Part shown: positions 29,306-62,257 of the stretch, piece by piece
How the letters are laid out: each line of letters opens with the position of its first letter
Position numbering within the stretch: the first letter of the stretch is position 1
Origin: an uncultured Pseudomonadota bacterium
GTDB lineage: Bacteria > Oederibacteriota > Muellerivitia > Muellerivitales > Muellerivitaceae
Direction: 5' to 3'
DNA: 64,000 nt
NCBI GenBank assembly: GCA_963843375.1
Contig: CAWJKT010000009.1
Location: 64,001 to 128,000, forward strand
Notes under the pieces: model-generated
Told to the model about the DNA's origin: nothing
What the model saw: the letters and a program-made list of their open reading frames with translations, nothing else
Database searches by the model: none
Position numbers and translations under genes: made by a program

Positions 29306-29333
29306 TGTCCACGACGGGGACCCATCCTGGACA
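29306..29333 (+). repeat. 28-bp palindromic site, copy 1
   Basis: TGTCCACGACGGG GA CCCATCCTGGACA. Confidence 0.92.
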
Positions 29334-29434
29334 ACTAAATGTTATGTTCGAAATGTTGAAGGTTGGAAACCAAACCAAGAGATCGTCGCGCCAGCCCGCA
29401 ATCCGACCCTTTTTTTCTGAACCTGGGAGAAAAC

Positions 29435-30583
29435 ATGAATAAAACAAAAGTTCTAGTGGTGGGTGGGGGCCTCGTCGGCCTCTCCATCGCTTGGCACCTC
29501 AAAAAACGCGGTGCATGGCCAGTAGTTCTGGATCGTCACGAGCTCGCGCAAGAAGCATCCGCCGCTGGTGCGGGGATGTTGCCCCTCCACAGTGTGGCAT
29601 TCGATACCCCGGAACTCTATGAACTAAGCCGTTTGTCCTACCGCCTGTATCCGTCCTGGGTGAAGGAACTTAAGCGCGCTTCGGGGTTGGACCCCGAATG
29701 GGAGAAGTCGGGATCGATGGGGCTTTTGTTTTCCGCGACGGAAGAAAAGAACGCACGGATGCTTTCCAAACGTTTGGTGGAGTTGGATATGGAGGTTTTG
29801 TGGTTGAGCGGCAAGGAAGCCCGCCGCAAGGAACCCGCATTGCCGAAAGATGTCCGCAAGGCCATGTATCTACCCGAAACCACCCAGATCCGCCCATCCG
29901 CCATGTGTGCGGTGGTGGTGGAAGCGGTGCGGCGCACCGGGGTTTCCATCCATTCCAACGAGCCGGTGAAATCGCTAGTGGTGCGTGGTGGCCGGGTCCA
30001 AGGCGTTAAAACCGCTAACCGAACAATAAAGGCCGACGCCGTAGTATTGGCTACCGGGGCTTGGGCGCCGGAACTGTTAAGCCCGCTTGGAATCGATTTG
30101 CCGGTGTATCCCCTTCGGGGACAGGTACTGCTTCTTCAAGGTCCTCCCTCCGGGATCAAACACATCCTTTTCGCGACCGGCTACTACATGGTGCCGCGCC
30201 GGGGCGGTGAATTGTACGTCGGCAGTACCTTGGAAAAAGCCGGGTTTGAAAGGGCCGTGACGCCTGAGGGTATTGCGACCCTGGCGACTGCGGCCAGGCG
30301 GATGGCGCCGGCTTTGTCGCCGCTGCGGGTTTCGGGTTATTTCTCCGGTTTTCGCCCCGGTTCGGTGGATGGGCATCCTTTCCTGGGTGCGGTTCCGGGC
30401 ACGGATGGACTTTATATTGCGGCGGGCCACCACACGCATGGGCATCTGCTGGCGGCCGCTACTGGTTACTTGATGACGCAATTAATACTGGATGGGAAGC
30501 CGGAAATGGATCTCTTGCCATTTGTCGTGGGCCGCAAGCCCCATGTACTTCAACCGCCCTGGTGGATGAAACTTTCACAATGA
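29435..30583 (+). CDS. thiO: Glycine oxidase ThiO-like FAD oxidoreductase
   Basis: VVGGGLVG, AS.AGAGML, ATGAW, P.RGQ, GSTLE, GFRP, AAGH. Confidence 0.78.
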   Translation: MNKTKVLVVGGGLVGLSIAWHLKKRGAWPVVLDRHELAQEASAAGAGMLPLHSVAFDTPELYELSRLSYRLYPSWVKELKRASGLDPEWEKSGSMGLLFSATEEKNARMLSKRLVELDMEVLWLSGKEARRKEPALPKDVRKAMYLPETTQIRPSAMCAVVVEAVRRTGVSIHSNEPVKSLVVRGGRVQGVKTANRTIKADAVVLATGAWAPELLSPLGIDLPVYPLRGQVLLLQGPPSGIKHILFATGYYMVPRRGGELYVGSTLEKAGFERAVTPEGIATLATAARRMAPALSPLRVSGYFSGFRPGSVDGHPFLGAVPGTDGLYIAAGHHTHGHLLAAATGYLMTQLILDGKPEMDLLPFVVGRKPHVLQPPWWMKLSQ

Positions 30584-30593
30584 AGAAGAGTTT

Positions 30594-30621
30594 TGTCCAA
30601 TACACGGACCCGTCGTGGACA
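30594..30621 (+). repeat. 28-bp palindromic site, copy 2
   Basis: TGTCCAATACACG GA CCCGTCGTGGACA. Confidence 0.88.
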
Positions 30622-30668
30622 AGGTTAAAAGGCTTACAAGGGGCATCTTTGAAATGGCAGGTTAAGAG

Positions 30669-31466
30669 GTGTTTATGAAGAATCTTGGTAAAGAATTATT
30701 GGTAATAGTGGGCCTGATAGCCGCCTTTATGATTTCAGAAAATTTGTTGGGCCGGATTCTCTTTCATTTTTCGCTTATTTCTATCGCTACCGACCAATTT
30801 GATATTCATTGGAATAATCTTTGGCTTCATAGTTGCTGGTCGACGATCGGCTTGATCTCAACGGTTTGCTATGCCTCATGGCTATTGAAGCTGAACCTCT
30901 GGAAAACAGTTCAGTTTCTGGGCGTTAAAGCTTTTAACTCCCAACAAGTGCTCGTAGGGGTTTTAGCCGCTTTGCCAATATTGGCTGTTCACTGGATATC
31001 CCTTCAATTTTATTCTCAGCCGGGAGTTGGGTTACGTTCAAACTGGGCACCTTATCTAGCTTATACAATTATCGGTGCCGGCTTTTTTGAGGAATTAACC
31101 TTTAGGGGTATGTTTTTTCAGTATTTTCGAAAAAACCATTCTTTCATGGTGGCTGCAACCCTTTCCGGAATTTTTTGGAGTTTGATGCATCTGTACATGT
31201 CCTCTCAGCTGGGAGACATTTGGGTCTCAATGGTTTTGGCTTTCGTGCTAGCTTTTCCGGCGGCTTATTTATTTGAAAAAGGCGGTATGGTGGTTTGGGG
31301 TTGGATGATCGTGCATTTAAGTGTCGACTCGACGCAACTTTTTATAAATCCGAATGGTTCTAGTTACTCGGATCAATGGATTCTGGGTCTCGTCGCGCTG
31401 ATAGTATCCGTGATTATCACCTTTCCTTTAGCGAATTGGATTTTGAAACCGGCTAAATTCAAATAA
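30669..31466 (+). CDS. CPBP (CAAX/Abi) intramembrane metalloprotease
   Basis: EELTFRG, FWSLMH, VH..VD; multi-TM. Confidence 0.85.
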   Translation: MFMKNLGKELLVIVGLIAAFMISENLLGRILFHFSLISIATDQFDIHWNNLWLHSCWSTIGLISTVCYASWLLKLNLWKTVQFLGVKAFNSQQVLVGVLAALPILAVHWISLQFYSQPGVGLRSNWAPYLAYTIIGAGFFEELTFRGMFFQYFRKNHSFMVAATLSGIFWSLMHLYMSSQLGDIWVSMVLAFVLAFPAAYLFEKGGMVVWGWMIVHLSVDSTQLFINPNGSSYSDQWILGLVALIVSVIITFPLANWILKPAKFK

Positions 31467-31470
31467 AGAT

Positions 31471-31498
31471 TGTCCACGACGGGGACCCGCGTTGGACA
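31471..31498 (+). repeat. 28-bp palindromic site, copy 3
   Basis: TGTCCACGACGGG GA CCCGCGTTGGACA. Confidence 0.92.
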
Positions 31499-31595
31499 AT
31501 AAAAATCCCTTTTAAACCTAATCCTTCTATTGCGCTTCGGACGAAGCGCAGCGGGTATTAACCCTTTTCTTTTTTTGACACGTTGGCAATTTTAC

Positions 31596-31624
31596 TTGAC
31601 CTATTACGCACCTCGTAATAGCAT
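31596..31624 (+). promoter_or_regulatory. higBA promoter/operator
   Basis: TTGACC-N17-TAGCAT with CTATTACG-N5-CGTAATAG palindrome; predicted start site falls at about the ATG (leaderless). Confidence 0.68.
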
Positions 31625-31629
31625 GGCTT

Positions 31630-31908
31630 ATGATTCGAACTTTTCGAGATAAAGAGGTTGAAGCCCTTTTTCTGGACAATGTTGTTCCGCGTTTTAGGAA
31701 TATTGAACGTGTTGCCCGGAGGAAACTTCTCTACTTGAACGCCGCGAAAAGACTCGAGGATTTACGGATGCCGCCGGGCAATCAGTTGGAGGCGCTGAAA
31801 GGTGATCGGAAAGGCCAGCACAGCATCCGCGTCAACGACCAATGGAGAATTTGTTTTACCTGGCACGAAGGTGAAGCGGTAAATGTTGAAATAGTCGACT
31901 ATCACTGA
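31630..31908 (+). CDS. higB: HigB toxin
   Basis: DLRMPPGNQLEALKGDRKGQHSIRVNDQWRICF, VEIVDYH. Confidence 0.93.
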   Translation: MIRTFRDKEVEALFLDNVVPRFRNIERVARRKLLYLNAAKRLEDLRMPPGNQLEALKGDRKGQHSIRVNDQWRICFTWHEGEAVNVEIVDYH

Positions 31909-31914
31909 GGTGAC

Positions 31915-32223
31915 ATGATGAACACAAAAGCAAAAAAAATGGACCCGATCCATCCTGGGGAAGTGCTTTTAGAGGAATTTATGAAACCGATGGGTATCAG
32001 CATCAATCAGCTGGCCCGCGACATCATCGTTCCGCCCAACCGTATCAGCGGCATCGTCAACGCGGGCCGCGCGATTACGGCTGACACCGCTTTGCGTCTG
32101 GGGAAGTATTTCGGTGTTTCGCCCGAAACCTGGCTCGCTCTTCAATCGGATTACGACCTTCGCCTCGCCCAGCGCGCCGGTTGGGTAAAGATGGAACCGC
32201 GCATACATGCCCATACGGCTTAA
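31915..32223 (+). CDS. higA: HigA antitoxin
   Basis: PIHPGEVLLEEF, RAITADTALRL..YFG.S...WL.LQ..YDL. Confidence 0.93.
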   Translation: MMNTKAKKMDPIHPGEVLLEEFMKPMGISINQLARDIIVPPNRISGIVNAGRAITADTALRLGKYFGVSPETWLALQSDYDLRLAQRAGWVKMEPRIHAHTA

Positions 32224-32274
32224 CAGCTTGTTAAGCTTAACCCTGGTCCGGGTACACTTTGAAGTGTTTCGGGT

Positions 32275-32302
32275 TGTCCACGACGGGGACCCTTCGTAGC
32301 AG
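32275..32302 (+). repeat. 28-bp palindromic site, copy 4 (right end degenerate)
   Basis: TGTCCACGACGGG GA CCCTTCGTAGCAG. Confidence 0.88.
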
Positions 32303-32345
32303 TTAAAGCCCCTTTTGAGTCCAGGTTTAACCAAAGTGATATCAA

Positions 32346-32885
32346 ATGAAACCTATCGAAACCCAACGTCTTGTGCTTCGCCAGTGGAACCCTTCGGATC
32401 GGGAAGCCTTTTACAAAATGAATTCCGACCCCGTCGTGATGGAATATATGCCAAAAATCCTTACCCGTGAGGAAAGCGACGGGCTGATGGCCCGGATTGA
32501 AGAACATTTTGATAAACACCATTTCGGCCTTTGCGCGGTCGAGGAGAAAGAAACCGGAGCCTTAGTCGGCTTCATGGGCCTTTCCGTTCCCCGTTTTGAG
32601 TCCCACTTCACTCCCTGCGTTGAAATTGGGTGGCGGCTGGATAAGGCTTTTTGGGGGAAGGGCTACGCGACGGAGGCCGCTGTGGCCACGTTGGCGGCTG
32701 GGTTCAATCTATTTGGCCTGGAAGAAATCGTCTCTTTCACGTCACCTTTGAATCAACGCTCCATTTCGGTGATGAAACGATTAAAAATGACAAGTAATCC
32801 TTGGGACGATTTCGAGCATCCGGCGCTTCCGGAAGGGCATCCCTTGCGAAAACATGTCCTTTATAGGATTACCAGATCGGTATGA
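32346..32885 (+). CDS. GNAT acetyltransferase (RimJ/RimL family)
   Basis: ETQRLVLRQW, VEIGWRL...FWGKGYATEAA, N.RS..VM.RL. Confidence 0.92.
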   Translation: MKPIETQRLVLRQWNPSDREAFYKMNSDPVVMEYMPKILTREESDGLMARIEEHFDKHHFGLCAVEEKETGALVGFMGLSVPRFESHFTPCVEIGWRLDKAFWGKGYATEAAVATLAAGFNLFGLEEIVSFTSPLNQRSISVMKRLKMTSNPWDDFEHPALPEGHPLRKHVLYRITRSV

Positions 32886-32893
32886 TTATTACC

Positions 32894-32921
32894 TGTCCAC
32901 GACGGGGACCCTTCGTGGACT
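32894..32921 (+). repeat. 28-bp palindromic site, copy 5
   Basis: TGTCCACGACGGG GA CCCTTCGTGGACT. Confidence 0.92.
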
Positions 32922-33105
32922 AAAAAGTCGGATATTATCCAGTGAAAAGCATTTCCCCAAAACAATTCCCGCCTCCATTTCGTTGAACCCGTTCCCATAA
33001 GTTGAAAAAATCCTTTATTTTCGGGCCTTGACGAAAAAAACGAGGGTTCCTAATTGTATTTCCACTAAAGGTGTTGTTTTCAAAAAACAGTAAGGAGGAA
33101 TAACC

Positions 33106-33552
33106 ATGAATGGTTCTGGTCTTTTACCCCAAGGTTTTAAGATGGACAAAAGTCAATGGGGCCGCCTTTTGGACGATGTTTTGGAAATGCGGCCCGGGTT
33201 TAACCTTCAAGGATTTGGGACCGGCTGGGTGCCGCCCTTTGACGTGGAGGAGAACCAGGATGAGTACCGGTTTTACGCCGAAATGCCGGGCATGAAACAG
33301 GAGGATATCAAGCTTTCTTTGGCGGAAAACATCTTGACGGTTTCGGGCGAGAAAAAACCGCCGTATGACACCGAAAAAAGGAATTTCCACAGGTTGGAAA
33401 GATCCTACGGTACATTCCAGCGAAGTTTTTCCCTCCCCCACCTTATAGACACCAACAAAATCAAAGCTACCGTCAAGGATGGAATCCTGGAGATTATCGT
33501 TCCCAAGAGTGCGGAATCGAAACCCCGAGCAATCGCTGTAACCGCTGGATAA
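33106..33552 (+). CDS. Hsp20/alpha-crystallin small heat-shock protein
   Basis: EMPG, LTVSGEK, ERSYGTFQRSFSLP, KDGILEI..PK. Confidence 0.94.
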   Translation: MNGSGLLPQGFKMDKSQWGRLLDDVLEMRPGFNLQGFGTGWVPPFDVEENQDEYRFYAEMPGMKQEDIKLSLAENILTVSGEKKPPYDTEKRNFHRLERSYGTFQRSFSLPHLIDTNKIKATVKDGILEIIVPKSAESKPRAIAVTAG

Positions 33553-33561
33553 TCAAGGGTG

Positions 33562-33600
33562 AGGCAGGGCATTGCGGTGCCCTGCCTTCCTTTCTGTTTA
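33562..33600 (+). terminator. Intrinsic terminator after hsp20
   Basis: AGGCAGGGCA/TGCCCTGCCT hairpin with pyrimidine/T-rich tail. Confidence 0.65.
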
Positions 33601-33623
33601 AATTTCTGGTTCAAGGAGGAATT

Positions 33624-33812
33624 ATGAACCTTCTTCGATCAACTGAATTAACACGACGCTTTCTGCAACACCGGCGCTTGAGCCGCCTTCGGGACTTTAT
33701 TTCTCATCCCCGGAAGAAACTCTCCAAAAAAGACGGCAAGGATGAGGATATTCCTAAAAATCCCTTTAGCGGGAACCCGCCTTTCGGCGGAATTCCCGCT
33801 TTGGCGTTTTAA
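33624..33812 (+). CDS. Small basic hypothetical protein
   Basis: 62 aa with strong AAGGAGG RBS; no recognised motif. Confidence 0.45.
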   Translation: MNLLRSTELTRRFLQHRRLSRLRDFISHPRKKLSKKDGKDEDIPKNPFSGNPPFGGIPALAF

Positions 33813-33829
33813 CCCACGGTGGTTCGCGA

Positions 33830-34721
33830 ATGTGGCGTTGGATTGATCAATTTTCCATTCAAAAGCTGATTTCCTCTTCCATCTCCAAGAGGCTTGTCGT
33901 CTTTATTTCGCTTTCTTTCCTCCTTCTGATCGATCTCTTGGATTATTTGATTGGCGGATTGCTGCATCTCACGGTCTTTCTCTTGGCACCTGTAGCCTTT
34001 GTCACCTGGAACATCGGCATTCAAAGCGGCCTGTTGTTTTCGGTCCTTTGCGCCAGTTACTTGATGGTGGATTACGCCCTCCATCCTTTGATGTTTCCTC
34101 ATCCCTGGGTCGTATTGTGGGACGACGACCGTCATGACCATTTATTTCTCTGTTATTTGCCTCATTTTGACTTCCCTGAAGAGTGAGATGGACAAGGCCT
34201 TACAAAAGTCCAAAACCGACGCTCTGACGGGACTCATGAATTCGGCGGCTTTTTATGAAATCGCCGAACAAGAAAGGGAACGTTCCAACCGTTACCACCA
34301 TCCCTTCACCCTTTGTTTCCTGGACTTGGACAACTTCAAGAAGGTGAATGATATCTATGGGCACCTGATGGGGGACAAACTGCTCAAAAAGGTATCGTTG
34401 ATCCTACAAGGCCAGGTGCGATCTAGCGACCGCGTCGCCCGGCTGGGCGGGGACGAATTCGTTGTCCTGTTCCCAGAAACTGGGCCGGAGGCCGCTGAAA
34501 GATTGAGCTCGCAATTGCACCAAGCCATTAACACGTGTTTAAAAGAGGAGTTTCCTCTGGTGACCCTCAGTATGGGAGTGGTGACCTATTACGATGTGCC
34601 CGAAAAAATCGACGAGATTGTTCATGCCGCCGACCTTTTGATGTATGAGGCGAAAAAATCCGGTAAAAATTCACTCCGTTGTCAGACGGTCGGCTTGTCG
34701 GCAGAAGCGGCGCGGGAATGA
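33830..34721 (+). pseudogene. Membrane-anchored GGDEF diguanylate cyclase, one frameshift near 34120
   Basis: TM N-terminus in one frame; TDALTGL.N, DLDNFK.VND.YGH..GD, RLGGDEF in the next; removing one G from TGGG joins them. Confidence 0.82.
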
Positions 34722-34855
34722 ATTTTGCAAAAGCGAAAATGAATGCCGGAAAAATAAACTCTTGATTTTTTTAAAAAAGGTTCCTAATAAAATTTTTAAA
34801 AGTTGGCTGAACAATGAATGGTTAAATTTTTAAAAAGAAGAAAAGGAGGCCTGTC

Positions 34856-35815
34856 ATGAAACGTATATTGATCGAGACAACCGTAGTTGCCGCTGTAGCT
34901 GTTGGGCTAGCTTTCGCGTTACCTTCGCTGACCAATCTAACTTATGGCGGTACCTCGCCGACTCCCGCCGCCCAATCCAACGAAAAGTCTGGCGTGAGCC
35001 AAAAGGTCGGGAACGGTCAAAATCCACAGGGGCAAGTCGCTGACAAAAGGAAGCAAATTACTTCCGAGGCCATGGCCGCTATTGAGGAAACCAGGAGCGC
35101 CTTGAAATGCCTGGATGAAAATAAGAAGGACGAGGCCCTTCATGCCCTTGAGCTGGCCACCGGAAAATTGGACTTGATCCTGGCCCGGGACCCCAATCTG
35201 GCCCTGGCTCCAACCCGCGTGAGCGAAGCGACCTATGATGTTTACGCCGATATTGACAAGGTAAAGACCGCTCGCGGGGACGCGGAGGCCTTTTTGGTGG
35301 CTGGGAAAGTCCCGGAAGCCCGCCAGATTCTGGACGCCCTTCGCAGTGAGACGGTCATCAGCGTCTCGAATATTCCTCTGGCGACTTATCCCGATGCCAT
35401 CAAAAAAGCCGTCAAATTCATAGACGATGAAAAAATGGAAGACGCGAAGGATACGCTCCAAACGGCTTTGGATACGCTGGTCGTGACCGATACGATCATC
35501 CCCCTCCCAGTAGTTACAGCCCAGGATATTTTGAAAGACGCGAAACAATTGTCGGAGAATGACAGCCGCTCTGCGGATGATAATAAAAAACTGAGCGAAC
35601 TGCTGGCTGAAGCCCGTTCAAAATTGGAATTCGCCCAAGCCCTCGGATACGGTACCAAAAAAGATTTTAAGGACTTATACGGTGAGCTGGATGTGATTAA
35701 GGAAAAAACTGATTTTGGCAAGTCGGGAAAAGGGTTTTTTGACGATGTGGAGGCTTCTCTCAAGAAGCTGTTCGAAACCTTACAACCCATTAACCATTTT
35801 TCCTCTAAGGGATGA
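34856..35815 (+). CDS. YfdX-family periplasmic protein
   Basis: Signal peptide; ATGKLDLILARDP.L, A..L...L.SE, IPLATYP.AIK.A, IIPLP. Confidence 0.8.
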   Translation: MKRILIETTVVAAVAVGLAFALPSLTNLTYGGTSPTPAAQSNEKSGVSQKVGNGQNPQGQVADKRKQITSEAMAAIEETRSALKCLDENKKDEALHALELATGKLDLILARDPNLALAPTRVSEATYDVYADIDKVKTARGDAEAFLVAGKVPEARQILDALRSETVISVSNIPLATYPDAIKKAVKFIDDEKMEDAKDTLQTALDTLVVTDTIIPLPVVTAQDILKDAKQLSENDSRSADDNKKLSELLAEARSKLEFAQALGYGTKKDFKDLYGELDVIKEKTDFGKSGKGFFDDVEASLKKLFETLQPINHFSSKG

Positions 35816-35881
35816 TCTGATACAAATTGGAAAGGGGGTGGGATATGAATTGAGTATAGGCATAACACAACTTAATGATTG

Positions 35882-35919
35882 AAACTCCAGCGCTTTTAGC
35901 GCTGGAGTTTTTTATTTTT
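35882..35919 (+). terminator. Intrinsic terminator
   Basis: AAACTCCAGCGCT/AGCGCTGGAGTTT plus T-run. Confidence 0.85.
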
Positions 35920-36012
35920 TAAGGTCTAAGTTTAGAAAACGAATCAAAGATATAATTGAAAACCGTTGTCCACTTCGGGGAGCCGTCATGGACAAGATCG
36001 GAAAGGGGAACT

Positions 36013-36267
36013 ATGAAGAAATCTGTAACGCAGCGCCTGAATAAAAAAATGGTCACACAGGCTGGTGGTCCGAATACAGGGATTGAATTCTTAAAAATCC
36101 CCAAGCCCGCGCAAAGAGCCCTTCTCAACAACGGCATCCATAATATTGCCGATCTTTCAAAAAGAACGATTGAAGAGGTAAAAGAGTTTCATGGGATCGG
36201 GCCTTCGGCCTTTCCGATTTTGAAACAAGCGCTTCAAAAGAACGGGCTGACTTTTAAAGAGTCTTAA
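36013..36267 (+). CDS. Small helix-hairpin-helix (RNAP alpha-CTD-like) protein
   Basis: PAQRAL..NGI..IADLS..T..EV...HGIGP. Confidence 0.75.
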   Translation: MKKSVTQRLNKKMVTQAGGPNTGIEFLKIPKPAQRALLNNGIHNIADLSKRTIEEVKEFHGIGPSAFPILKQALQKNGLTFKES

Positions 36268-36296
36268 TAACCTGCTGTTTTAAACTCGATGGAAGT

Positions 36297-36324
36297 TGTC
36301 CACGATGGGGACCCATCGTGGACA
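36297..36324 (+). repeat. 28-bp palindromic site, copy 6 (perfect 13-2-13)
   Basis: TGTCCACGATGGG GA CCCATCGTGGACA. Confidence 0.93.
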
Positions 36325-36346
36325 GCCAAAAAAGAAAGGTGATCGA

Positions 36347-36532
36347 GTGAATATAAAAGGATTTAAATATTCCATTGTAGACTTCTTCCAAAATATCCTT
36401 TTTGTTGGTTTGCTTGCCATAATTTCAATTGTTTATGTCAAGGAGGCCCTTGGCCTAGATCACCATGGAAGAATCTCTAATGGAATTCTTTGGCTGGTAA
36501 TGCCCTTACCCCAAAGTTCGATCCAAATTTAA
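36347..36532 (+). CDS. Small AT-rich membrane ORF, possibly truncated
   Basis: GTG with AAGGTGA RBS just after repeat copy 6; hydrophobic segments. Confidence 0.35.
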   Translation: MNIKGFKYSIVDFFQNILFVGLLAIISIVYVKEALGLDHHGRISNGILWLVMPLPQSSIQI

Positions 36533-36870
36533 GTTAGTTAAGGCCCGACTTTTCAGCCATTGCTTTCATCGGAGTCTTGCCACACAAACTGTTGTGACAC
36601 CCGCGCCGTCCAGTGGTCCCTCGCCACGTTGATCGGGCTAAAAAATCTTCTCCTGCATAATCCTCAAAGCCTTGGGTGTTTAATAAAAGAACATTGTGCT
36701 TTTATCGACTGAAACCCGGCGTTTTTGTCCCGATTTGTTGAAAAAACCGGAAACCGCTTCGCAAACCGATCCTAAACGGGAAATGAACATTTCGATTCTT
36801 TTCAAAGCTTCGGTTTTGTTCATGCTGGGCATCCTATCGTTTGCGACTGGATTTCAAAATAACCAACTGG

Positions 36871-36912
36871 GTGACTTAAGTCACGGCGTTAAAAAGGTCT
36901 GTGCCATAAACT
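36871..36912 (+). promoter_or_regulatory. Crp/Fnr-type site with class II promoter
   Basis: Perfect palindrome GTGACTTAAGTCAC; TAAACT at the -10 position expected for a site centred at -41.5. Confidence 0.75.
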
Positions 36913-36949
36913 GGAACCATCGTTGAAGATTATCAAGGAGGAACTAGTC

Positions 36950-37774
36950 ATGGGTAATACGGTCCAATTGGATGTCAGGAATATAATGCCGCGAGAGCGA
37001 CACCCGAAGATTTTCGATATGTTCGACAAATTAAAGGAAGGAGAGTCCTTTGAACTGGTCAATGACCATGACCCTAAACCCCTTTATTACCAGTTCGTGC
37101 ACGAGCGGCCCAACCAGTTCAAGTGGGAATACCAAGAAGAAGGCCCCGAAGTTTGGAAAGTATCTATCCTCAAAACGTCCAATTTTTCCAAGGCAGAAGT
37201 CTCCCCCCAAACCGAAGTTAAACCCAAATGGGCAGCTTCTCTCGACTCGTCCCATGAAGTCTTGTTAGATGTTCGGCCCATGATTGAAAAAGGAGAAGAA
37301 CCCTTTCAGGCCATCATGAAGGCGGTCAAAGGCCTTGGGGATGGCCAATATCTCCGATTGGTCAACTCTTTTGAGCCCGTACCTCTTTACGCAGTATTGG
37401 GCAAGCAGGGATTTGAGATTTTCGCCGAAACAAAAGACGGTATCTGGAATATTTATTTCAAAAAACCTTCTGGTAAAGGTTCGGTCCCACCGGCTGGGGT
37501 GAAAACCGATTCCCCTTCGGATGACCTCTTTGACCGGATGGTGGTTCGCAAGCCACGGGTGGAAGTGGATGTTCGGGGGCTTATGCCGCCCGAACCCATG
37601 ATCCGGATTTTCGAGGAGTTGAACTCTCTCCCTCCGGGTGGAGTGATTTTTGTGCATCATCACCGGGAGCCGGTGATGTTGTACGACAAATTAAGGGAAA
37701 GAGGTTATGAGGGCGTAACCCGCAAGTTGGGAGACTCGGACTACAAGGTCCTCATCTGGAAAAAGGAAGGATGA
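36950..37774 (+). CDS. Triple DUF2249-domain protein
   Basis: Three repeats: LDVR..PRERHP.IF...NDHDPKPLYY; LDVRP....GEEPF...NSFEPVPLY; VDVRGLMPPEPM...HHREP..LY. Confidence 0.85.
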   Translation: MGNTVQLDVRNIMPRERHPKIFDMFDKLKEGESFELVNDHDPKPLYYQFVHERPNQFKWEYQEEGPEVWKVSILKTSNFSKAEVSPQTEVKPKWAASLDSSHEVLLDVRPMIEKGEEPFQAIMKAVKGLGDGQYLRLVNSFEPVPLYAVLGKQGFEIFAETKDGIWNIYFKKPSGKGSVPPAGVKTDSPSDDLFDRMVVRKPRVEVDVRGLMPPEPMIRIFEELNSLPPGGVIFVHHHREPVMLYDKLRERGYEGVTRKLGDSDYKVLIWKKEG

Positions 37775-39120
37775 CCATGGAAGACTCCGCTGTTCTTAAA
37801 ACCCAGTTGCCACCACCGGTGCCTTCGGCATCAACGACCATGCCTTCTTTTCAAATGGCACCGTCCTTCCGGTTGGTGGGGTTGTACCTGAGTACAGGCA
37901 TCACTATTTTCATAGTCCTTTGCCTACTTTTGGCGGTTTATTCCTCCGAATTAAAGGGTGAATTTTTTCAGGGGCGGCTCTTAGGTCTCACCCACCTGAC
38001 GGTGCTGGGCTGGGTATCTATGGTCATTTTCGGAGCCTTGTTCCAGCTGGTACCTGTGGTTTTCGAGGCACCTCTGTTCAGCGAACCCCTAGCCTTCATC
38101 CAATATGCCTTGTTCCTGCCGGGTCTTTTGGGAATGGTCCTGAGCTTCTGGAATTTCAAATTGGGGATTCCACTTCTTGTTTCGGCGGCTTTGACGGCCT
38201 CGGGCTTTTTACTTTTCATCATCAACGTAGGCGTCACACTGGCCCGCGCTAAAAGCCGTTCCCTAACCGGTCTTTTCATCGGTACTGGGCTTTTTTACTT
38301 GGCCCTGACCGCCACATTAGGATTTCTCTTGGCCTTGAACCTAGCCTATCCCTATATCGTACGCCGCGACCACTTGGACCTTTTGAAGATCCACGCCCAT
38401 TGGGGGCTGGCCGGATGGATCGGCATGATCATCATGGGCGTGGCGTTGAAACTCATCCCCATGTTCAGCCTAGCCCACGGCTTTTCCACCACGCCAGCCA
38501 AATGGGCCTACGGGCTTTTCAACGCGGGGCTCCTGGGACTGGCCCTGGGCTGGTGGATCAACCCGGAGGGATGGATAGTAAAAATCGGGGGCGCCCTGCT
38601 CGCCTTGGGGGTGGCTTTTTATCTTTACCAGGTATATTTCATCCATCGATCCCGCTTGAGGCGCATGCCCGACGTGGGGATGCGGTACTCGCTTCTGGCA
38701 TTCTCGCTACTTTCCGTGGCGGCGGGAATAGGGCTCGGCCTTCTTTTTTTTAACTTTCAGGATGGATGGCGGGATGGAGCGGTCCTCACTTATGCTTCGG
38801 TTCTACTGTTGGGGGCCTTCTCGCTCCTGATTGTGGGCCAGCTTTACAAGATCGTTCCTTTCCTCGTCTGGTTTCACACCTACTCCAGCCAAGTAGGACT
38901 AAAGCCGGTCCCGCTCCTGAAAGACCTATACAGCGAAAAAGTGGGGAACCGCCAATTCTGGCTGATGAGCGTGAGCCTGCCCTTTCTTTGGGCTGGAATT
39001 TTTTTTAATCAGGACTCCCTGAGGCTGGCCGGATCTATCGGCCTGGTTTTATCGGCCGTCTTCTTCGGCTGGAACATGTTCAACCTTTTCCGTAGGGGGT
39101 TTTCCCATGGCAACAGCTGA
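37771..39120 (+). CDS. ~12-TM membrane protein with conserved His, function unknown
   Basis: LTHLTVLGW..G.L.QLVP, HAHWGLAGW..G...KLIP, GQLYKIVPFLVW. Confidence 0.75.
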   Translation: MTMEDSAVLKTQLPPPVPSASTTMPSFQMAPSFRLVGLYLSTGITIFIVLCLLLAVYSSELKGEFFQGRLLGLTHLTVLGWVSMVIFGALFQLVPVVFEAPLFSEPLAFIQYALFLPGLLGMVLSFWNFKLGIPLLVSAALTASGFLLFIINVGVTLARAKSRSLTGLFIGTGLFYLALTATLGFLLALNLAYPYIVRRDHLDLLKIHAHWGLAGWIGMIIMGVALKLIPMFSLAHGFSTTPAKWAYGLFNAGLLGLALGWWINPEGWIVKIGGALLALGVAFYLYQVYFIHRSRLRRMPDVGMRYSLLAFSLLSVAAGIGLGLLFFNFQDGWRDGAVLTYASVLLLGAFSLLIVGQLYKIVPFLVWFHTYSSQVGLKPVPLLKDLYSEKVGNRQFWLMSVSLPFLWAGIFFNQDSLRLAGSIGLVLSAVFFGWNMFNLFRRGFSHGNS

Positions 39121-39403
39121 GGAAATCCGCCAGGCCCTTACCTGGGTCATTGACCCCGAAATCGGTCTCAACATTGTCGATTTAGGCCTCGTCTACAACA
39201 TCGAGATTGAGGAAAAAAAAGCCGTTATTACCATGACGCTGACTACCCAAGGCTGTCCCATGCACGACAGCATGAAGGTGGCCGTAGAGAACGTGGTCAA
39301 ACGCCTGGAACCGGACAAGGAAGCGGAAATCCGGGTGGTATGGGACCCGCCTTGGACACCGGAAATGATGACTCCGGGTGCCAGGAACTACTTGGGTGTG
39401 TAG
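39107..39403 (+). CDS. DUF59 metal-sulfur cluster assembly factor (SufT-like)
   Basis: VIDPEIGLNIVDLGLVY, MTLTTQGCP, VWDPPWTPEMM. Confidence 0.92.
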   Translation: MATAEEIRQALTWVIDPEIGLNIVDLGLVYNIEIEEKKAVITMTLTTQGCPMHDSMKVAVENVVKRLEPDKEAEIRVVWDPPWTPEMMTPGARNYLGV

Positions 39404-39449
39404 GGCTCCGCAATGGGGTGAATATCTCTTAGGAATGAGGAAAGTTTTC

Positions 39450-40895: not shown

Positions 40896-41023
40896 GCTGA
40901 ATCGGGAAAGCGAATTGTGCGGTGATCACTGTTTCTTGGGCCGGTTGCTGTCCCTTACGCACCGCCAACTCGGTATTGCGTATGAAGATTTATCTAAAAA
41001 AACTAATGAAAGCGGGGTGCAAG

Positions 41024-41467: not shown

Positions 41468-41508
41468 TCTGGACCTGGTTTCTGGACAGGTAGTGTCATA
41501 AAGAGGCG

Positions 41509-49851: not shown

Positions 49852-49874
49852 ATGGATTGAGGTTACAAAACCTT

Positions 49875-49902: not shown

Positions 49903-50084
49903 ACCCTTTTCCTCTCGACTTACCCGATTTTACTCTTTTTGATCGCTCTCATTTTGATAAATCTGCCAGTGGGGGAATCTTGAATAATAAATAGTTTCGA
50001 ATTCGGCAGGTTTAATTTTCAAACCAGGCTATAGTGACATAAAGTCCACGCAGAAGAAGTTGGCCTCGTTCGGGTTGAGGAATA

Positions 50085-51308: not shown

Positions 51309-51309
51309 A

Positions 51310-53675: not shown

Positions 53676-53679
<4 letters not shown>
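51310..53679 (+). CDS. xfp: Phosphoketolase
   Basis: [42 protein letters not shown]. Confidence 0.96.
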
Positions 53680-56726
<3,047 letters not shown>

Positions 56727-56734
<8 letters not shown>

Positions 56735-57056
56735 AAAACCCGAAACCGAACAGGGGAAAGATACGACAGGGTTCAGCCGGGAGGTCGGCGAGAAGGCGGT
56801 ACGCAAGATCAGGGCCCAACGGAATCCGGTCAAGGGCGTCTGGTTTGGTTTGGGAATGATGGGGCTAATCGGCTGGTCGGTGGTGGTGCCGACCCTCCTT
56901 GGCGCGGCACTTGGCCTATGGTTGGACAAACGGCATCCGGGCGGGCATTCCTGGACGTTGGCCCTCATGGCGGCGGGACTCGCGATTGGATGCATGAACG
57001 CCTGGCATTGGGTGGCCCAACAGGACAAGGAAATGGGGGAGGACCAAAATGACTGA
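56727..57056 (+). CDS. atpQ: AtpQ (AtpZ/AtpI-family) N-ATPase accessory protein
   Basis: GLIGWSVVVPTLLG..LG.WLD. Confidence 0.85.
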
Positions 57057-57369
57057 TTTTTTAAAAATGGGGATGGCTTTGGCGGGTGGCGTCTTGATAG
57101 GCGGAATATTTTTTGGCGGCCTCTGGTGGACGGTTCAGAAAGGGGTTTCGATCAAACGGCCCGCCCTTTGGTTCCTCGGCAGCCTGTTGTTAAGGATGGG
57201 GATCACCTTGGGTGGCTTCTATTTCATCGCTCACGGACATTGGGAGAGGCTCCTGGTATGCCTGCTGGGGTTTTTAATTGGCCGCTATATCGTGACGCGG
57301 CTTACGGGTGGGGTGGAAAAACCGAAAATCCTGGCACAGGGGGTCGGCCATGCGCCTTACTCCAGATGA
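57049..57369 (+). CDS. atpR: AtpR N-ATPase subunit
   Basis: FFGGLWWTV, SLLLR, GFL.GR. Confidence 0.85.
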   Translation: MTDFLKMGMALAGGVLIGGIFFGGLWWTVQKGVSIKRPALWFLGSLLLRMGITLGGFYFIAHGHWERLLVCLLGFLIGRYIVTRLTGGVEKPKILAQGVGHAPYSR

Positions 57370-58147
57370 GATGATCTTTTGGCATCATGGTTTTCTCAAA
57401 CTCAACGGAACCATTGTTTTCACTTGGGGGCTCATGTTTATCCTGACGGTGGGTTCCAAGATCCTCACCCATAAGCTTTCGACGGGGCCGGACCGTTCCC
57501 GGTGGCAAAACCTGCTTGAAATTGTCGTTACCGCCATCGAAAAGCAAATCCAAGAGGTGGGTTTGAGCCGGCCCGAGAAATATATTGGCTTCCTTGGCAC
57601 CCTTTTTCTTTTTGTCGCCGCAGCCAGCCTTTGCACGGTCATCCCCGGCTACGAGCCCCCCACCGGATCGCTTTCGACCACAGCCGCGCTCGCCTTGTGC
57701 GTGTTCGTGGCCGTGCCTTTCTTCGGAATCGAGGATCAAGGGTTGGGAAACTACCTCAAGTCCTACATGAAGCCCACCTTCATCATGCTGCCTTTCAACA
57801 TCATCAGCGAACTTTCGCGCACCTTGGCCCTGGCTGTCCGTTTGTTCGGCAACATGATGAGCGGGGCGATGATTATAGCCATCCTGCTCACGATCACGCC
57901 GTTTGTTTTCCCGATCATCATGATGGTCCTCGGCCTTCTCACCGGAATGGTTCAGGCCTATATCTTCAGCATCCTGGCAGGGGTTTATATCGCGGCGGCG
58001 ACAAGGGTTCGAAAGCCCAAGCCTGAAACGGATTCAAAACCGGAAGGCAAGGGTGGGGCGAAGGCCGGGATAAAAGCCGACCCGAAACCTGGGACCGAAA
58101 CCGAAAAGGAGGTCGTGGCCGATCATTTGCCCGTTTTGAATCATTGA
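57350..58147 (+). CDS. atpB: N-ATPase a subunit
   Basis: SELSRTLALAVRLFGN, VQAYIF.IL...Y. Confidence 0.93.
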   Translation: MRLTPDEMIFWHHGFLKLNGTIVFTWGLMFILTVGSKILTHKLSTGPDRSRWQNLLEIVVTAIEKQIQEVGLSRPEKYIGFLGTLFLFVAAASLCTVIPGYEPPTGSLSTTAALALCVFVAVPFFGIEDQGLGNYLKSYMKPTFIMLPFNIISELSRTLALAVRLFGNMMSGAMIIAILLTITPFVFPIIMMVLGLLTGMVQAYIFSILAGVYIAAATRVRKPKPETDSKPEGKGGAKAGIKADPKPGTETEKEVVADHLPVLNH

Positions 58148-58179
58148 AGAAAAAAACATAGTAAATAAAAGGAGGACGC

Positions 58180-58461
58180 ATGGACAGCTTAACGATTATC
58201 GCGGTGGCATCGATTGTCATCGCGGGGATAACCACCGGTTTCGGGACGATGGGGCCCGCCCTGGCGGAAGGGAGGGCGGTCGCGACGGCCTTGACTTCAC
58301 TGGCCCAACAGCCGGATGCCTCCGCCACCATCACCCGGACTTTGTTCGTGGGACTGGCGATGATCGAGTCCACTGCCATCTATTGTTTCGTGGTCTCGAT
58401 GATTCTCATCTTCGCCAACCCCTTCTGGAACCACGCCATTGCCCAAGTGGCGGGAAAGTAA
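58180..58461 (+). CDS. atpE: N-ATPase c subunit
   Basis: PALAEG, QQPD, MIESTAIY. Confidence 0.95.
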   Translation: MDSLTIIAVASIVIAGITTGFGTMGPALAEGRAVATALTSLAQQPDASATITRTLFVGLAMIESTAIYCFVVSMILIFANPFWNHAIAQVAGK

Positions 58462-58465
58462 ACCC

Positions 58466-59611
58466 ATGCTCATCGATTGGTTCACTGTCATCGCCCAGGC
58501 GCTCAACTTCCTCATTTTGGTGTGGCTGATGAAGCGCTTTTTATATAAGCCCATCCTCAACGCCATCAATGAGCGGGAAAAGAGGATCGCCGCCGAACTC
58601 GCGGAGGCGGACAAGAAGAAGTCCGAAGCCCAAAAGGAGGGCGACGATTTCAAGCGCAAAAATGAGGAATTTGATCGGCAACGAGCCATGCTATTGAACC
58701 AGGTAACGGTCGAGGCCCAGGCTGAACGCCAACGGCTTCTCGTGGAGGCGCGAAGGGCCGCCGAGGATTTGAGTTATAAACGGCTGGAAGCCCTGAAGGC
58801 GGAAGAACATAACCTGCACCAGGCCATCCGGCGTCGGACGGGCAAGGAAGTATTCTCCATCGCGCGAAAGACGCTATCTGATCTCGCTGGTACGGGTTTG
58901 GAGGAGCGAATGGCTGACCTGTTTATCAACCGTTTGCGGAAGATGGAAGGCCAGGCGAAAGCCGACCTTGCCGGGGCCCTTCGGACGGCTCCTGAACCCG
59001 CGCTGGTTCGAAGCGCTTTTGACTTACCCATGGAGCAGCGAGCTTCCATCCAAAAGGCGCTGAACGAGACTTTTTCATCCGAGATTCGCGTTCGTTTCGA
59101 AGCCGCCCCGGAATTGATCAACGGTATTGAACTCACTACAAATGGACAAAAGCTTGCATGGAGCATCGAGGATTACCTGGTGTCGATGGAAAAGGGTGTT
59201 GAGGAGATCCTGAAAGAGAAGGATAAAACCGCGAGCAAGGCATCGTCCGATTTGACGCCACGGATCGCCAAGCGCGCTTACGAACTGTACGAGATGCATG
59301 GTCGCAAAAACGATTCGGCGATCCAGGACTGGAGTCAGGCGGAGAGGGAGGTTCGGAAGACGGGTATCAAAGCCGAACCTAAGCCGGAAGCTAAAGTCGA
59401 ACCTAAAGTTGAGCTCAAAGCACCGCCAAAGCCCGAGGCCAAAGCCGAGATCAAACCTGAAGAAGAGGTAGCGCTTAAGCCTAAAGCCGAAGTAACCCCT
59501 AAACCTGAAATAAAAAATGGACCAAAAACAGAAGTTAAAGCCGAGCCTGGGCCGGAAGTCAAAGTGGAACCCAAGCCGGAAAAAGTCAGTCCGGGAACAA
59601 AGAGCGCATGA
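58466..59611 (+). CDS. atpF: N-ATPase b/delta-like subunit with C-terminal DUF2934-like motif and P/K/E repeats
   Basis: IDWFT..AQ..NF.IL..L.KRFLYKP; GIEL...[22 protein letters not shown]......DW.QAE. Confidence 0.9.
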
Positions 59612-61302
59612 ACATGGAAACCGAAAACCTTGAAAGTGTTTTTGAAATCGCGTTTGCCGGAATAGGCCAAACGCTGGAAGCGACCAAGCCTCAACTGATG
59701 CCACGAGAGGTTGGAACGATCATGAGTGTCGGAACCGGTATTGCCAAGGTTTCGGGTCTTCCGGGAGTGGGATTTGAGGAATTGATCGAGTTTCCGGGCG
59801 ACGTGCTCGGAATCGCCTTTAACGTCGACGAGAACGAAATCGGCGTAGTCCTGCTCGGGGAATACTGGCATTTGCGGGCGGGGGATGAAGTCCGGCGGAC
59901 GGGCCGGGTCATGGATGTGGCCGTGGGCGAGGGATTGCTGGGCAGGGTCATTGATCCGCTGGGACGCCCCCTTGATGAAAACGGACCGGTGGCCTCCAGC
60001 GGGCGCCTGCCCGTCGAACGCCCCGCCGCGCCCATCATGGACCGGGCACCAGTCACGGTCCCGCTCCAGACTGGCCTCAAGGTCATCGACGCGCTTATCC
60101 CCATCGGGCGGGGCCAAAGGGAGTTGATCCTCGGCGACCGGCGGACGGGGAAGACAGCCATCGCCATCGATACCATCCTCAACCAGCGGGACCAGAATGT
60201 ATTGTGCGTTTATTGTTTCATCGGCCAGCGGGCATCCGCCGTCGCGAAGGCGGTGGCGACCTTGCGGGAAAAAGGCGCGATGGATTACACCGTGGTCGTC
60301 GTGACGGAGGGTAACGATCCTCCAGGCCTCACTTACCTCGCCCCCTACGCCGCCACCAGCATCGCGGAGTCCTTCATGGAATCGGGCCGGGATGTTTTGA
60401 TCGTTTACGATGACCTTACCCATCACGCGCGCGCCTACCGCGAACTCTCCCTCCTGCTGAACCGTCCGCCAGGCCGGGAAGCCTTTCCGGGCGACATCTT
60501 TTATATCCATTCGCGGATGCTCGAACGGACGACGCATTTGGGAAAGGAACTCGGGGGAGGTTCCCTTACCGCGCTCCCCATCATCGAGACCCAGGCCCAG
60601 GATATTTCCGCCTATATTCCCACGAACCTGATTTCCATAACGGATGGGCAGATTTACCTCTCGCCCTCGCTGTTTGAATTGGGAGTACTGCCCGCGGTCG
60701 ATGTGGGGAAATCCGTTTCAAGGGTTGGGGGAAAGGCGCAACGCGAGGCCTACCGGGTGGTGGCGGGAGACCTCAAGCTTGCCTATGCGCAATTCGAGGA
60801 ACTTGAGACTTTTTCCAGGTTCGGCGCAAGCCTGGATGAAAACACCCACAAAGCCATTGAGCATGGACGACGGATACGATCCTGCCTGAAACAGCCGGAA
60901 GGGGCCCCGGTGTCGGTTCCCGCGCAGATTGCCGTCCTGTTGGCGTTGGGGGAGAAACTCTTCGACCTAATCCCATTGGACCGAATGAAGGACGCCGAGA
61001 GATCCCTGCTTGAAGCCTCGGCGAAACTGCCGGGGGAGGTTCGAGGGAGATTGGAGTCCTCCGAAAAATTGAGCGGCAAGGACCGTGAAATGATTATCCA
61101 AACCGCCCGCGATTCGCTTGCCCCCTTCCAAGCCAAATCCGAGCCAAAGACGGCAGTCAATACGGAAACCCCAGTCAAGCCCCGGTCGGGGTCCAAGCCG
61201 GAAGCCAAGACGGAGATAAAGCCGAAACCCGAACCTTTGATCCAGCCGGAAAACAAAACGGAGGCAAAAGAAGGCCCGGACCCGAGGTTAAATCGTGAGT
61301 AA
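59608..61302 (+). CDS. atpA: N-ATPase alpha subunit
   Basis: [37 protein letters not shown]. Confidence 0.95.
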
Positions 61303-62188
61303 CACAACCGCCAGCCTTCGTCGAAAGATCGCCGGTGCCGGGGATCTTCAATCCGTCGTCCGAACAATGAAGGCCGTGGCCGCGTCCAGTATCGGGCAAT
61401 ACGAGAATTCGGTTCTAGCCCTGGCCGACTACTATCATGCCGTTGAACTGGGTTTGGGTGTTTGCTTCAGGGCAAGCGGGCCGGTTTCCGATGTCGAGGT
61501 AAGGAACGGGAAACAAAAAGTGGGAGGCATTGGGGCGGTCGTTTTCGGCTCGGACCAGGGCCTGGTGGGTCAATTTAACGAAGTGGTTGCAGATTTCGCC
61601 GTAAAAACCCTTTCGGCATTTCCATCCAAAGCCGAGGTCTGGGCTGTCGGGGAACGTGTTTACGCGCGGCTTACGGAAGCGGGCCTGCCGTTGATGGGGG
61701 TATTAACCGTGCCGAATTCCGTCAAGGCCATAACACCGCTCGTCGGGCAGATCCTCATGGAAAGCGAGGCGCGCCGGGACAAGGGTGAAATCAGCGAACT
61801 CCACCTTTTCTACAATCGCCCGACATCCGGGGCCGTTTACGCGCCCGTGACCCAGCGGCTTCTGCCACTGGACGAAAACTGGAGACGCAAGCTTGCCGGC
61901 CTCGCCTGGCCGACGGGATTCCTGCCCGAGGTCATGGGCGTGGGCGCCGAGACTTTACGGGCGTTCCTGAACGGATACCTTTTCGTTTCCCTCTTTCGGG
62001 CCTGCGCCGAATCCCTAGCCAGCGAGAACGCCAGCCGCCTGGCGGCGATGCAACGCGCGGATAAAAACATCGACGATTTGTTGGAGGAACTCAACGTTAA
62101 TTTCCATCGGTTGCGCCAAAGCGGAATAGATGAGGAACTTTTCGACGTCATCTCTGGATTCGAGGCCTTGAACGGCAAGGGGAAATGA
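61295..62188 (+). CDS. atpG: N-ATPase gamma subunit
   Basis: [34 protein letters not shown]. Confidence 0.93.
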
Positions 62189-62229
62189 TGGTTGTCGAAT
62201 AAACTTATAACCGGCCAAGTTTAGGAAGT

Positions 62230-62257
62230 TGTCCACACTGGGGACCCGCATTGGAAA
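62230..62257 (+). repeat. 28-bp palindromic site, copy 9 (degenerate)
   Basis: TGTCCACACTGGG GA CCCGCATTGGAAA. Confidence 0.8.

Follow-up and report, generated by a model that had tools for sequence, protein, structure and literature searches.

The window, a 64,000-nucleotide stretch of contig CAWJKT010000009.1 (G000:C9:64001-128000), comes from the assembly (G000; 4.05 Mb, 32 contigs, 80% complete) of an uncultured bacterium of phylum FCPU426. It carries ten co-oriented 28-bp sites that bound exchangeable blocks of genes, and these belong to a real, family-wide cassette system of integron type. New here is that the array, followed past the window, ends at a terminal site beside a convergent gene for a 281-aa serine recombinase without a zinc ribbon. 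We propose, with a probability of about 0.6 on sequence grounds, that the 28-bp sites are the crossover sites of an integron-like cassette system and that the short serine recombinase is its likely enzyme. The sites are, with high probability, joints at which mobile cassettes recombine; the assignment of the zinc-ribbon-less recombinase as the enzyme, which draws on its gene position and domain content, is put forward as slightly better than an even bet. In the proposed mechanism, any DNA between two direct sites would behave as one cassette, with sizes between 0.3 kb (one gene) and 13 kb (an operon block).

The window was scanned on both strands with the pattern TGTCCA-N6-GGACCC-N4-TGGACA at up to three mismatches, with 100 dinucleotide-preserving shuffles as control. 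Nine matches are found, each best on the + strand, compared with a shuffle mean of 0.03. Six have no mismatch (29306..29333, 30594..30621, 31471..31498, 36297..36324, 49363..49390, and 49875..49902) and three have one (32894..32921, 35967..35994, and 62230..62257). A degenerate site at 32275..32302, also on the + strand, has four mismatches; it keeps the left arm and the core and has lost the outer right arm. The sequence-only reading had listed nine sites in a single orientation. The orientation stands and eight of the nine match at zero or one mismatch; the ninth is the degenerate site, and the site at 35967 had been overlooked. All ten sites follow a + strand stop codon, at 4-151 nt according to the open reading frame (ORF) tables rather than at the 4-100 nt claimed earlier. 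The site at 29306, which follows a HigA-like antitoxin gene, is the left edge of the array. No site at up to four mismatches lies to its left in the window, in agreement with the earlier statement that none precedes the tRNA fragment.

Cassettes of the window recur in other genera, with breaks at the sites. A 7.2-kb window query was compared with 31 genomes of the family, followed by nucleotide alignments. The cassette of Hsp20, GGDEF, and YfdX genes (32922..35966, +; 3.1 kb) is 96% identical over 3,102 nt to a segment of G023:C60, from a different genus; the homology starts at the site at 32894 and runs from site to site, and the DNA outside is unrelated. The cassette encoding a FAD-dependent oxidase (DAO/thiO-like, 406 aa; 29334..30593, +) is 88% identical, again site to site, in G042:C8. 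There it directly follows the higBA cassette, the order in the window being thiO, CPBP, and higBA, and the cassette of the CPBP/Rce1-like membrane protease (265 aa; 30622..31470, +) is missing between the two. The cassette of HigB toxin and helix-turn-helix antitoxin (higBA; 31499..32274, +) is present at 91-92% identity in G023:C6 and G042:C8, in other contexts. The GNAT acetyltransferase cassette (179 aa; 32303..32893, +) is 92% identical in G043:C137, from just past one site into the next, and a small cassette without a Pfam match (35995..36296, +) is 86% identical in G045:C3, with the homology ending at a site. Across genera, window cassettes are thus 86-96% identical, their homology stops at sites, and their order is shuffled.

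The same boundary is seen in 509 junctions pooled from G000, 123 non-redundant metagenome loci (143 minus overlaps), 300-bp contig loci, and loci of five relatives. Among junction pairs, 114 have a common upstream flank, 173 a common downstream flank, and 38 both; after deduplication, 61 pairs share the upstream flank only and 113 the downstream flank only. The per-position identity is ~0.7-0.8 in the shared flank and becomes random (~0.27) at the opposite edge of the site (positions 0 and 29), which bears out the expectation of the sequence-only reading that genomes differ by breaks at the sites.

Contigs of four public soil/peat runs from four studies (X1, X5, X7, and X8) were aligned to the window; window parts without contig cover in these runs are uninformative. 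Run contigs match single cassettes at 90-99% identity and then diverge from the window at sites. Contigs of X5 and X7 are unlike the window from 31499, just after the site at 31471, and a 3,222-nt contig of X1 carries the Hsp20-GGDEF-YfdX cassette with both ends unlike the window. A 516-nt contig of X1 corresponds to 28824-29323 (two mismatches) and continues with 16 letters identical to 62248-62263, a 16-mer that is unique in the G000 genome. It therefore joins the left part of the site at 29306 to the right arm of the site at 62230 and omits 33 kb. Other X1 contigs hold the cassettes too, indicating that both forms are present in the X1 sample, which may be the sample of origin of the window genome. 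Most other contig joints on the window have sides of only 21-32 nt, that is, one site matching another, and were not used. A loose end of X5 at 36314 was not counted as a deletion joint because the contig matches the window in the site alone. Differences between genomes and between samples thus break at the sites, and the earlier suggestion that these direct repeats gain and lose modules is supported.

The linkage of the site arms to the flanking cassettes indicates where in the site exchange takes place. Junction families were built without intron-followed junctions, and the shared flank had to reach the site (up to one mismatch in 12 nt). Of 14 downstream-shared families, 9 have the same right-arm N4, where chance predicts a rate of 0.13 (p=1e-5); of 19 upstream-shared families, 5 do (p=0.09). 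The left arm, whose diversity is low, agrees in 11 of 19 upstream-shared and 7 of 14 downstream-shared families, the chance rate being 0.44. Rare right arms (ATCC, GCAT-TGGAAA, GTAG, and TTCG) go with the downstream cassette, and the left arm differs. In particular, the right arm of the site at 29306 (ATCC) and the downstream thiO cassette are common to G042, and the right arm of the site at 62230 (GCAT-TGGAAA) with its downstream flank is 99% identical to a metagenome contig that has another upstream cassette. The right-arm linkage places exchanges in general left of position 19. The exchange recorded in X1 maps to positions 11-18, as positions 8-10 and 19-22 distinguish the site at 29306 from that at 62230. 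A putative exchange in the invariant core around the GA fits all linkage data. In the proposed mechanism, it would occur within the conserved core, positions 11-18 (GGGGACCC), which contains the asymmetric central GA, so that the left arm would stay with the upstream cassette and the right arm (N4 and TGGACA) with the downstream one.

The sites are confined to islands and to one family. After curation, G000 holds 74 sites, 66 of which have another site within 15 kb and form six arrays, at C6 7.5-63 kb, C6 254-271 kb, C9 93-137 kb (that of the window), C9 242-271 kb, C10 142-145 kb, and C18 48-60 kb. A co-oriented ORF lies upstream of 65 of the 74 (median 43 nt from the stop codon; 100 nt or less in 46 of the 65). 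Crude longest-ORF calls are overlapped by 16 of the 74 sites, an overlap that we attribute to over-extended start codons. Within G000, there are no cassette duplicates of note. GC skew matches the array orientation on C6 and C9, and gene orientation matches it equally. With up to one mismatch, 20 of the other 24 family genomes contain the motif, as does, with a single occurrence, the one genome of the sister family; 15 genomes of eight other families of the phylum have none, and a reversed-pattern control gives no match in any genome scanned. Four family members (G007, G017, G019, and G024) have no sites. In metagenomes, 49 of 50 loci with at least two sites have one orientation throughout and one is mixed. 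Clustering of the 422 ORFs found around 250 metagenome sites yields 356 clusters, indicating that the cargo is extremely diverse, and no recurrent neighbour gene is found among them.

The array at C9 242-271 kb is denser and lies within a polysaccharide-synthesis locus. Its cargo comprises VapBC/PIN, MazF, HicB, BrnA, GNAT, Sel1, SDR, TetR, and ArsR genes. One perfect site of this otherwise uniform + array, at G000:C9:261806 (L004:5806), is inverted (centre TC); the adjacent genes are not.

A logo was made from 312 distinct sites, for which the search pattern itself constrains positions 1-6, 13-18, and 23-28. On each side, the palindrome is one base longer: 221 of the 312 have T at position 0, and 296 have A or G at position 29. 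The left inner arm is conserved (CGACGG in 169, CGGCGG in 50), and the right inner N4 is variable (GTCG in 96, GGAT in 31, GGAG in 22, GCAT in 21, TTCG in 19, and ATCG in 19). When only the outer arms are used for the search, the centre is GA in 151 of 160 sites and mostly AA in the remainder, confirming the asymmetric GA noted in the sequence-only reading. The 13-bp inverted arms described there apply to some sites; the right inner four bases vary without covariation with the left arm. Pairing of the mirrored positions 7-10 and 19-22 is close to expectation (observed/expected 183/181, 152/147, 149/136, and 200/182), and perfect inner arms number 59, compared with 55 +/- 4.5 in 2,000 permutations. 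Therefore, the site is not a hairpin element. Among five window sites, three fold well (z -3.0 to -6.4; the site at 36297, with perfect arms, has z -6.4) and two do not: the site at 30594, with the odd left inner arm ATACAC, folds like its shuffles (z -0.9), and the site at 62230 has no fold (z +1.25). The DNA 3' of the site is A-rich, not T-rich, and Rfam has no match for the 28-bp site. The site thus appears to be a conserved protein-recognition sequence with a polar centre, not a structure-selected hairpin; conserved in sequence without structural covariation, it is probably used as duplex DNA.

This anatomy bears on an improbable alternative that dispenses with a dedicated enzyme, in which repetitive extragenic palindromic (REP)- or terminator-like palindromes would undergo homologous or microhomology exchange after DNA uptake. 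Perfect copies do fold strongly (z -6.4 and -4.4), 28 bp of identity can in general support RecA-type exchange, and many genomes have sites but no candidate enzyme. However, hairpin pairing is not selected, with two of the five window sites unfolded; the A-rich 3' flank provides no intrinsic terminator for co-oriented genes; homologous exchange alone would not enforce the orientation of the 2-bp centre that is uniform in 49 of 50 loci; and conservation of the sequence in at least 16 genera implies a protein reader. Nor do the sites resemble bacterial interspersed mosaic elements with REP-associated tyrosine transposases (RAYT), as 66 of 74 are clustered, covariation is lacking, and Y1 genes do not go with the repeats. 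Y1/HUH genes (PF01797) are absent from G000, G018 (99% complete, 85 sites), G023, and G020 and present in the site-less G007, G017, and G024. The REP-like family that the sequence-only reading had kept in view thus fails on arm covariation, folding, and RAYT distribution, and Y1/HUH transposases were rejected as the enzyme because their distribution does not track the sites. A Y1-transposase-like family of ~318 aa reaches 16-20 matches in some genomes (e.g., G012, G042, and G005), unrelated to the sites.

The array extends past the right end of the window, beyond the site at 62230, and an adjacent recombinase, which the sequence-only reading had stated to be absent from the window, is found at its end, just outside. 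PF00239 has two matches in G000, one of which is a 281-aa protein encoded at C9:137163-138005 on the - strand, 9.2 kb past the window end and convergent with the cassettes. The protein matches PF00239 (Resolvase; 4.1e-21) and PF07508 (Recombinase; 2.5e-15), as large serine recombinases do, and lacks their zinc ribbon with coiled-coil insert. Its best NCBIfam matches are CcrB, CcrA, and XisF, all far below the cut-off. The catalytic YVRVSS motif is conserved in seven of seven aligned sequences. In the alignment, the short form stops exactly where the zinc ribbon of 56%-identical long relatives starts; PF13408 (zinc ribbon) matches the long form and not the short one. A large protein collection contains 19 short-form clusters of 275-283 aa, which are 69-98% identical; after a gap, the next matches are at 61% or less. 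The zinc-ribbon Pfam domain is absent from all 19. Among 99 genomes of the phylum, the short form occurs in the site-bearing family only; homologues, intact or remnant, are present in 7 of 31 family genomes.

In 10 of 10 loci of the short recombinase or its remnant for which DNA past the 3' end could be evaluated (one each in G000, G001, G022, G045, G018, and G046, and four in G042), a site lies within ~40 bp of the 3' end of the recombinase gene, with its right arm towards the gene and the gene convergent. The array is on the 3' side of the gene only, and no site is found on the other side. Three further recombinase fragments at contig ends were left out of this count. Four long relatives (45-57% identical, 507-570 aa) have no sites within ~4 kb. 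In G000, the last obvious site before the recombinase is at C9:134162, and one more, a terminal site split by an intron, follows. Its 11 left-arm bases are at L002:7155-7165 and its other 17 bases at L002:9107-9123, ending 36 bp from the recombinase stop codon. The spacing between gene and terminal site is 8-36 bp. The terminal site is often distinguished by a right arm of the type ..AAGGAACA, after which comes a small conserved palindrome. Inside the C6 array, a site at G000:C6:48654 (L007:8654) has a terminal-type right arm, ..AGAAGGAACA, followed by the same small palindrome and by gene-end-like sequence as in the recombinase-side terminal sites of relatives; judged by this likeness, it appears to be what is left of a recombinase platform since lost.

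The intron in the terminal site (L002:7166-9106; G000:C9:135166-137106) lies between positions 11 and 12. It starts with GTGCG, encodes a 458-aa reverse transcriptase, and matches Rfam RF02003 and RF00029 (D1-D4, domain V/VI). A second intron family, starting 2 nt past the site (CGTGCCAG...), occupies 19 of the 509 junctions, including two 134-bp fragments in G000 (C9:252486 and C18:59734); in L175 (G045:C3), introns are at 1313-2416 and from 2445 onward. Group II introns are known to target the attC sites of integrons, and in parallel, group II introns home to the 28-bp sites. At L175:3299-4444 (G045:C3), an IS110-family transposase (PF01548 and PF02371) lies inside a group II intron that follows a cassette site.

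The domain content of the short recombinase suggests how it could act. One account of a large serine integrase assigns the reading of positions 16-24 in the 25-bp attP half-site to the zinc-ribbon domain, contacts near positions 9-11 to the recombinase domain, and control of attP/attB selectivity to the coiled coil (PMC3783163). Lacking both zinc ribbon and coiled coil, the short enzyme should need only ~13 bp per half-site, and identical sites could pair. By this analogy, such a reduced enzyme would match a 13-2-13 site that is used in every pairing. The proposed enzyme, then, would be a 275-283-aa serine recombinase with a catalytic and a recombinase domain, encoded at the array's distal end, convergent and just beyond the terminal site. 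It would cut at the central GA and recombine any two sites.

Small serine recombinases provide a precedent for the site. In site I of res (Tn3/gamma-delta resolvase) and in hix/gix, two inverted half-sites of 12-13 bp flank an asymmetric 2-bp centre, from which the site takes its polarity; the sites described here, with their GA, share this geometry. Unlike these, the 28-bp sites come without accessory sites or an enhancer and delimit exchangeable cassettes instead of serving to resolve cointegrates or flip a switch, and the DNA-binding part of the candidate is the recombinase domain of large serine enzymes rather than a small helix-turn-helix. The system also shares serine chemistry, and tandem units between direct attachment-site repeats, with the staphylococcal cassette chromosome (SCC/SCCmec, moved by Ccr) and with the accretion of cis-mobilizable and integrative mobilizable elements. 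In contrast to SCC, the enzyme here lacks the zinc-ribbon and coiled-coil domains, every site is near-palindromic and of one type rather than an attB/attP-derived hybrid, and the units are mostly single genes without their own recombinase. SCC uses one conserved target gene as attB, whereas here at least six unrelated loci per genome are occupied, as by the six arrays of G000.

Several observations weigh against the proposal. Most site-bearing genomes have no copy of the short recombinase, and no Resolvase-domain gene is found in G010 (99% complete, 27 sites), G005 (98%, 38 sites), G021 (90%, 39 sites), G023 (89%, 41 sites), or G016 (89%, 19 sites). Likewise, the 422 ORFs in 385 kb of metagenome DNA around 250 sites include no homologue of it. 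In three loci, the DNA beyond the recombinase carries conjugative-element genes of ArdC-like type, together with PRiA4-like genes. In addition, position 9 differs in upstream-shared families 3, 7, and 19 despite 96-100% identical flanks, indicating that one fixed central crossover is insufficient as an explanation. Finally, neither a circle nor an excision product with both reciprocal partners was seen. Arrays without a recombinase could be relics, could depend on an enzyme supplied in trans from unbinned elements, or could be worked by another enzyme; under the proposal, they would be relics or be served in trans.

The last of these possibilities, which we consider unlikely, is that the sites are true cassette sites of another enzyme, either an unbinned plasmid or phage recombinase or a member of an unrecognised family, and that the short recombinase is the integrase of an element that targets them. 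It would accord with the absence of the short recombinase from most site-bearing genomes. The ArdC-like genes past the recombinase, and TraG/HerA-like fragments (Pfam) to the left of the window array, point to a conjugative-element setting, in which the recombinase could be such an integrase, and the PRiA4-like genes speak for the same side. That elements can target the sites is exemplified by the group II introns, at 19 of 509 junctions and in the split terminal site. However, no second bounding site is found beyond the recombinase, over 3-10 kb in the 10 loci and ~100 kb in G000, no tyrosine recombinase occurs in the 385 kb around the 250 metagenome sites or among their 422 ORFs, and the integrase genes of G010 comprise only a Xer-like gene and tRNA-island integrases. 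The viral contigs scanned contain no copy of the commonest site form. A small resolvase by the last site of metagenome contig L193 is the sole serine recombinase in the 385 kb and is of another, small type; it was rejected as its 79%-identical G018 homologues have no sites nearby.

Tyrosine recombinases have 14 matches in G000, of which 13 were scanned as proteins. Integron-integrase models (NCBIfam) score 28-85 bits on these 13, compared with cut-offs of 265 and 435, none of the 13 reaches the XerC/XerD cut-off, and none of those scanned adjoins a G000 array. These results bear on the reading as an ordinary integron or a cluster of attC sites lacking an integron integrase (CALIN), which we consider barely credible. 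The array layout, the site just after the ORF, and the cargo of toxin-antitoxin, GNAT, and small unknown genes would fit an integron, and the array is, as in integrons, co-oriented and exchangeable. However, no IntI lies next to the array, an integron-type integrase is lacking among the 13 G000 proteins, and G001, like G010, has only Xer-like and tRNA-island integrases. Moreover, attC sites are variable in sequence and conserved in folded structure; the 28-bp sites, without an Rfam match, show the opposite and are not of attC type.

A single core Xer-like gene is present in 30 of 31 family genomes, and the sites, at 28 bp, can be read as 11-6-11 with one arm conserved and the other variable, as in dif. 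Dif-like sites of the pdif type worked by the host Xer would accord with this, as the sequence-only reading had considered, but we regard them as very improbable. The Xer-like gene of G000, G013, and G021 has at its 5' end an AT-rich 11-6-11 palindrome, perfect and unrelated in sequence to the cassette site; in G000, the palindrome is at C10:182387-182414 and the gene at C10:182366-183469. Six of 31 genomes contain the palindrome at up to two mismatches, each as a single copy, and in G042, G012, and G022 it lies elsewhere. This arrangement suggests a one-recombinase Xer/dif system in the family. Since the Xer-like gene has its own unrelated dif-like site, the cassette site is not a dif mimic; the gene, equally present in all four site-less genomes, was rejected as the cassette enzyme. 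Site orientation alternates in pdif modules, whereas here all sites point one way. Acinetobacter pdif modules, which are Xer-dependent, are alike in that 28-bp sites bound modules exchanged between replicons; unlike them, the system described here has a sequence unrelated to the dif-like site of the family, uniform orientation, and a dedicated recombinase candidate.

Integrons, including sedentary chromosomal integrons and CALINs, remain the closest likeness. Shared features are co-oriented arrays of diverse, mostly small cassettes with a site closely after each ORF, a cargo rich in toxin-antitoxin pairs and acetyltransferases, one recombinase-linked array with several recombinase-less arrays per genome, last site bases that belong to the next cassette, and group II introns that home to the sites. 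In contrast to integrons, the candidate enzyme is a serine rather than a tyrosine recombinase, its gene is distal, 3', and convergent rather than upstream and divergent, and cassettes reach 12-13-kb operon blocks. Our literature search, to the extent of sources outside subscription journals, returned no description of such a system in FCPU426 and none of cassette arrays in which a serine recombinase acts on short palindromic sites. In its widest form, to which we would give even chances, the reading is of an independently evolved "serine integron" in one family of the uncultured phylum: a recombinase without the zinc-ribbon/coiled-coil directionality module would recombine any identical 28-bp duplex sites, would build and reshuffle several arrays per genome, and would capture whole metabolic operons (nitric oxide (NO)/nitrite handling; phosphoketolase and N-ATPase), with introns co-adapted. 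Integrons are the textbook gene-capture platform, with one specialised tyrosine recombinase and folded single-stranded sites. If the reading is true, cassette-array gene capture would be a convergent solution and not a one-off, the sites would give a handle on accessory-gene movement in an abundant uncultured peat/soil lineage, and a very compact recombinase (~280 aa) with a short symmetric site would be a possible tool. The system moves large operon blocks, which integrons rarely do.

Two such blocks lie in the right part of the window array. The first (36325..49362; 13 kb) has genes on both strands, with Pfam matches to DUF2249/TusA, NMO-like, hemerythrin/ScdA, multicopper-oxidase (nirK-like), Crp regulator, and cupin proteins. 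The sites at both of its ends stay on the + strand despite - strand genes at 41509-46875. A cassette of a single 135-aa gene without a Pfam match (49391..49874, +) separates it from the second block (49903..62229, +; 12.3 kb), which encodes acetate kinase, phosphoketolase, a class-I aldolase, and an N-ATPase operon. With these, the Pfam results agree with the module contents of the sequence-only reading throughout: DAO/thiO, CPBP/Rce1-like, HigB with helix-turn-helix, GNAT, Hsp20/GGDEF/YfdX, multicopper-oxidase/NO-related, and ack-xfp-fba-N-ATPase genes. A second ack-xfp-fba set, 70-76% identical at the nucleotide level to that at 50085-54704 of the window, is at C9:46006-58345, outside any array; therefore, the cassette-borne set is an extra copy.

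The tRNA-island integrases (~370 aa, eight paralogues in G000) were rejected as the cassette enzyme, being accompanied by an excisionase-like gene and by att sites that are tRNA fragments and unrelated to the motif; their copy number tracks site number only loosely. A 516-aa integrase after the C18 array was rejected as well, as it sits at a tRNA-Ser and the 134 bp shared there are an intron fragment. The tRNA 3'-half fragments at ~25480-25535 of the window and at L001:12345-12400 (G000:C9:32345-32400) are att sites of the ~370-aa integrases. The 5.8 kb that follow the integrase gene at C9:31181-32290 match a contig of G023, from a different genus, at 98% identity. Homologues of the tRNA-island integrase in G043:C127, G016:C42, G045:C2:210334-211437, and G043:C129 match over the full length and contain the same two in-frame TGA codons, and that of G045 adjoins a thiO homologue outside a cassette context.

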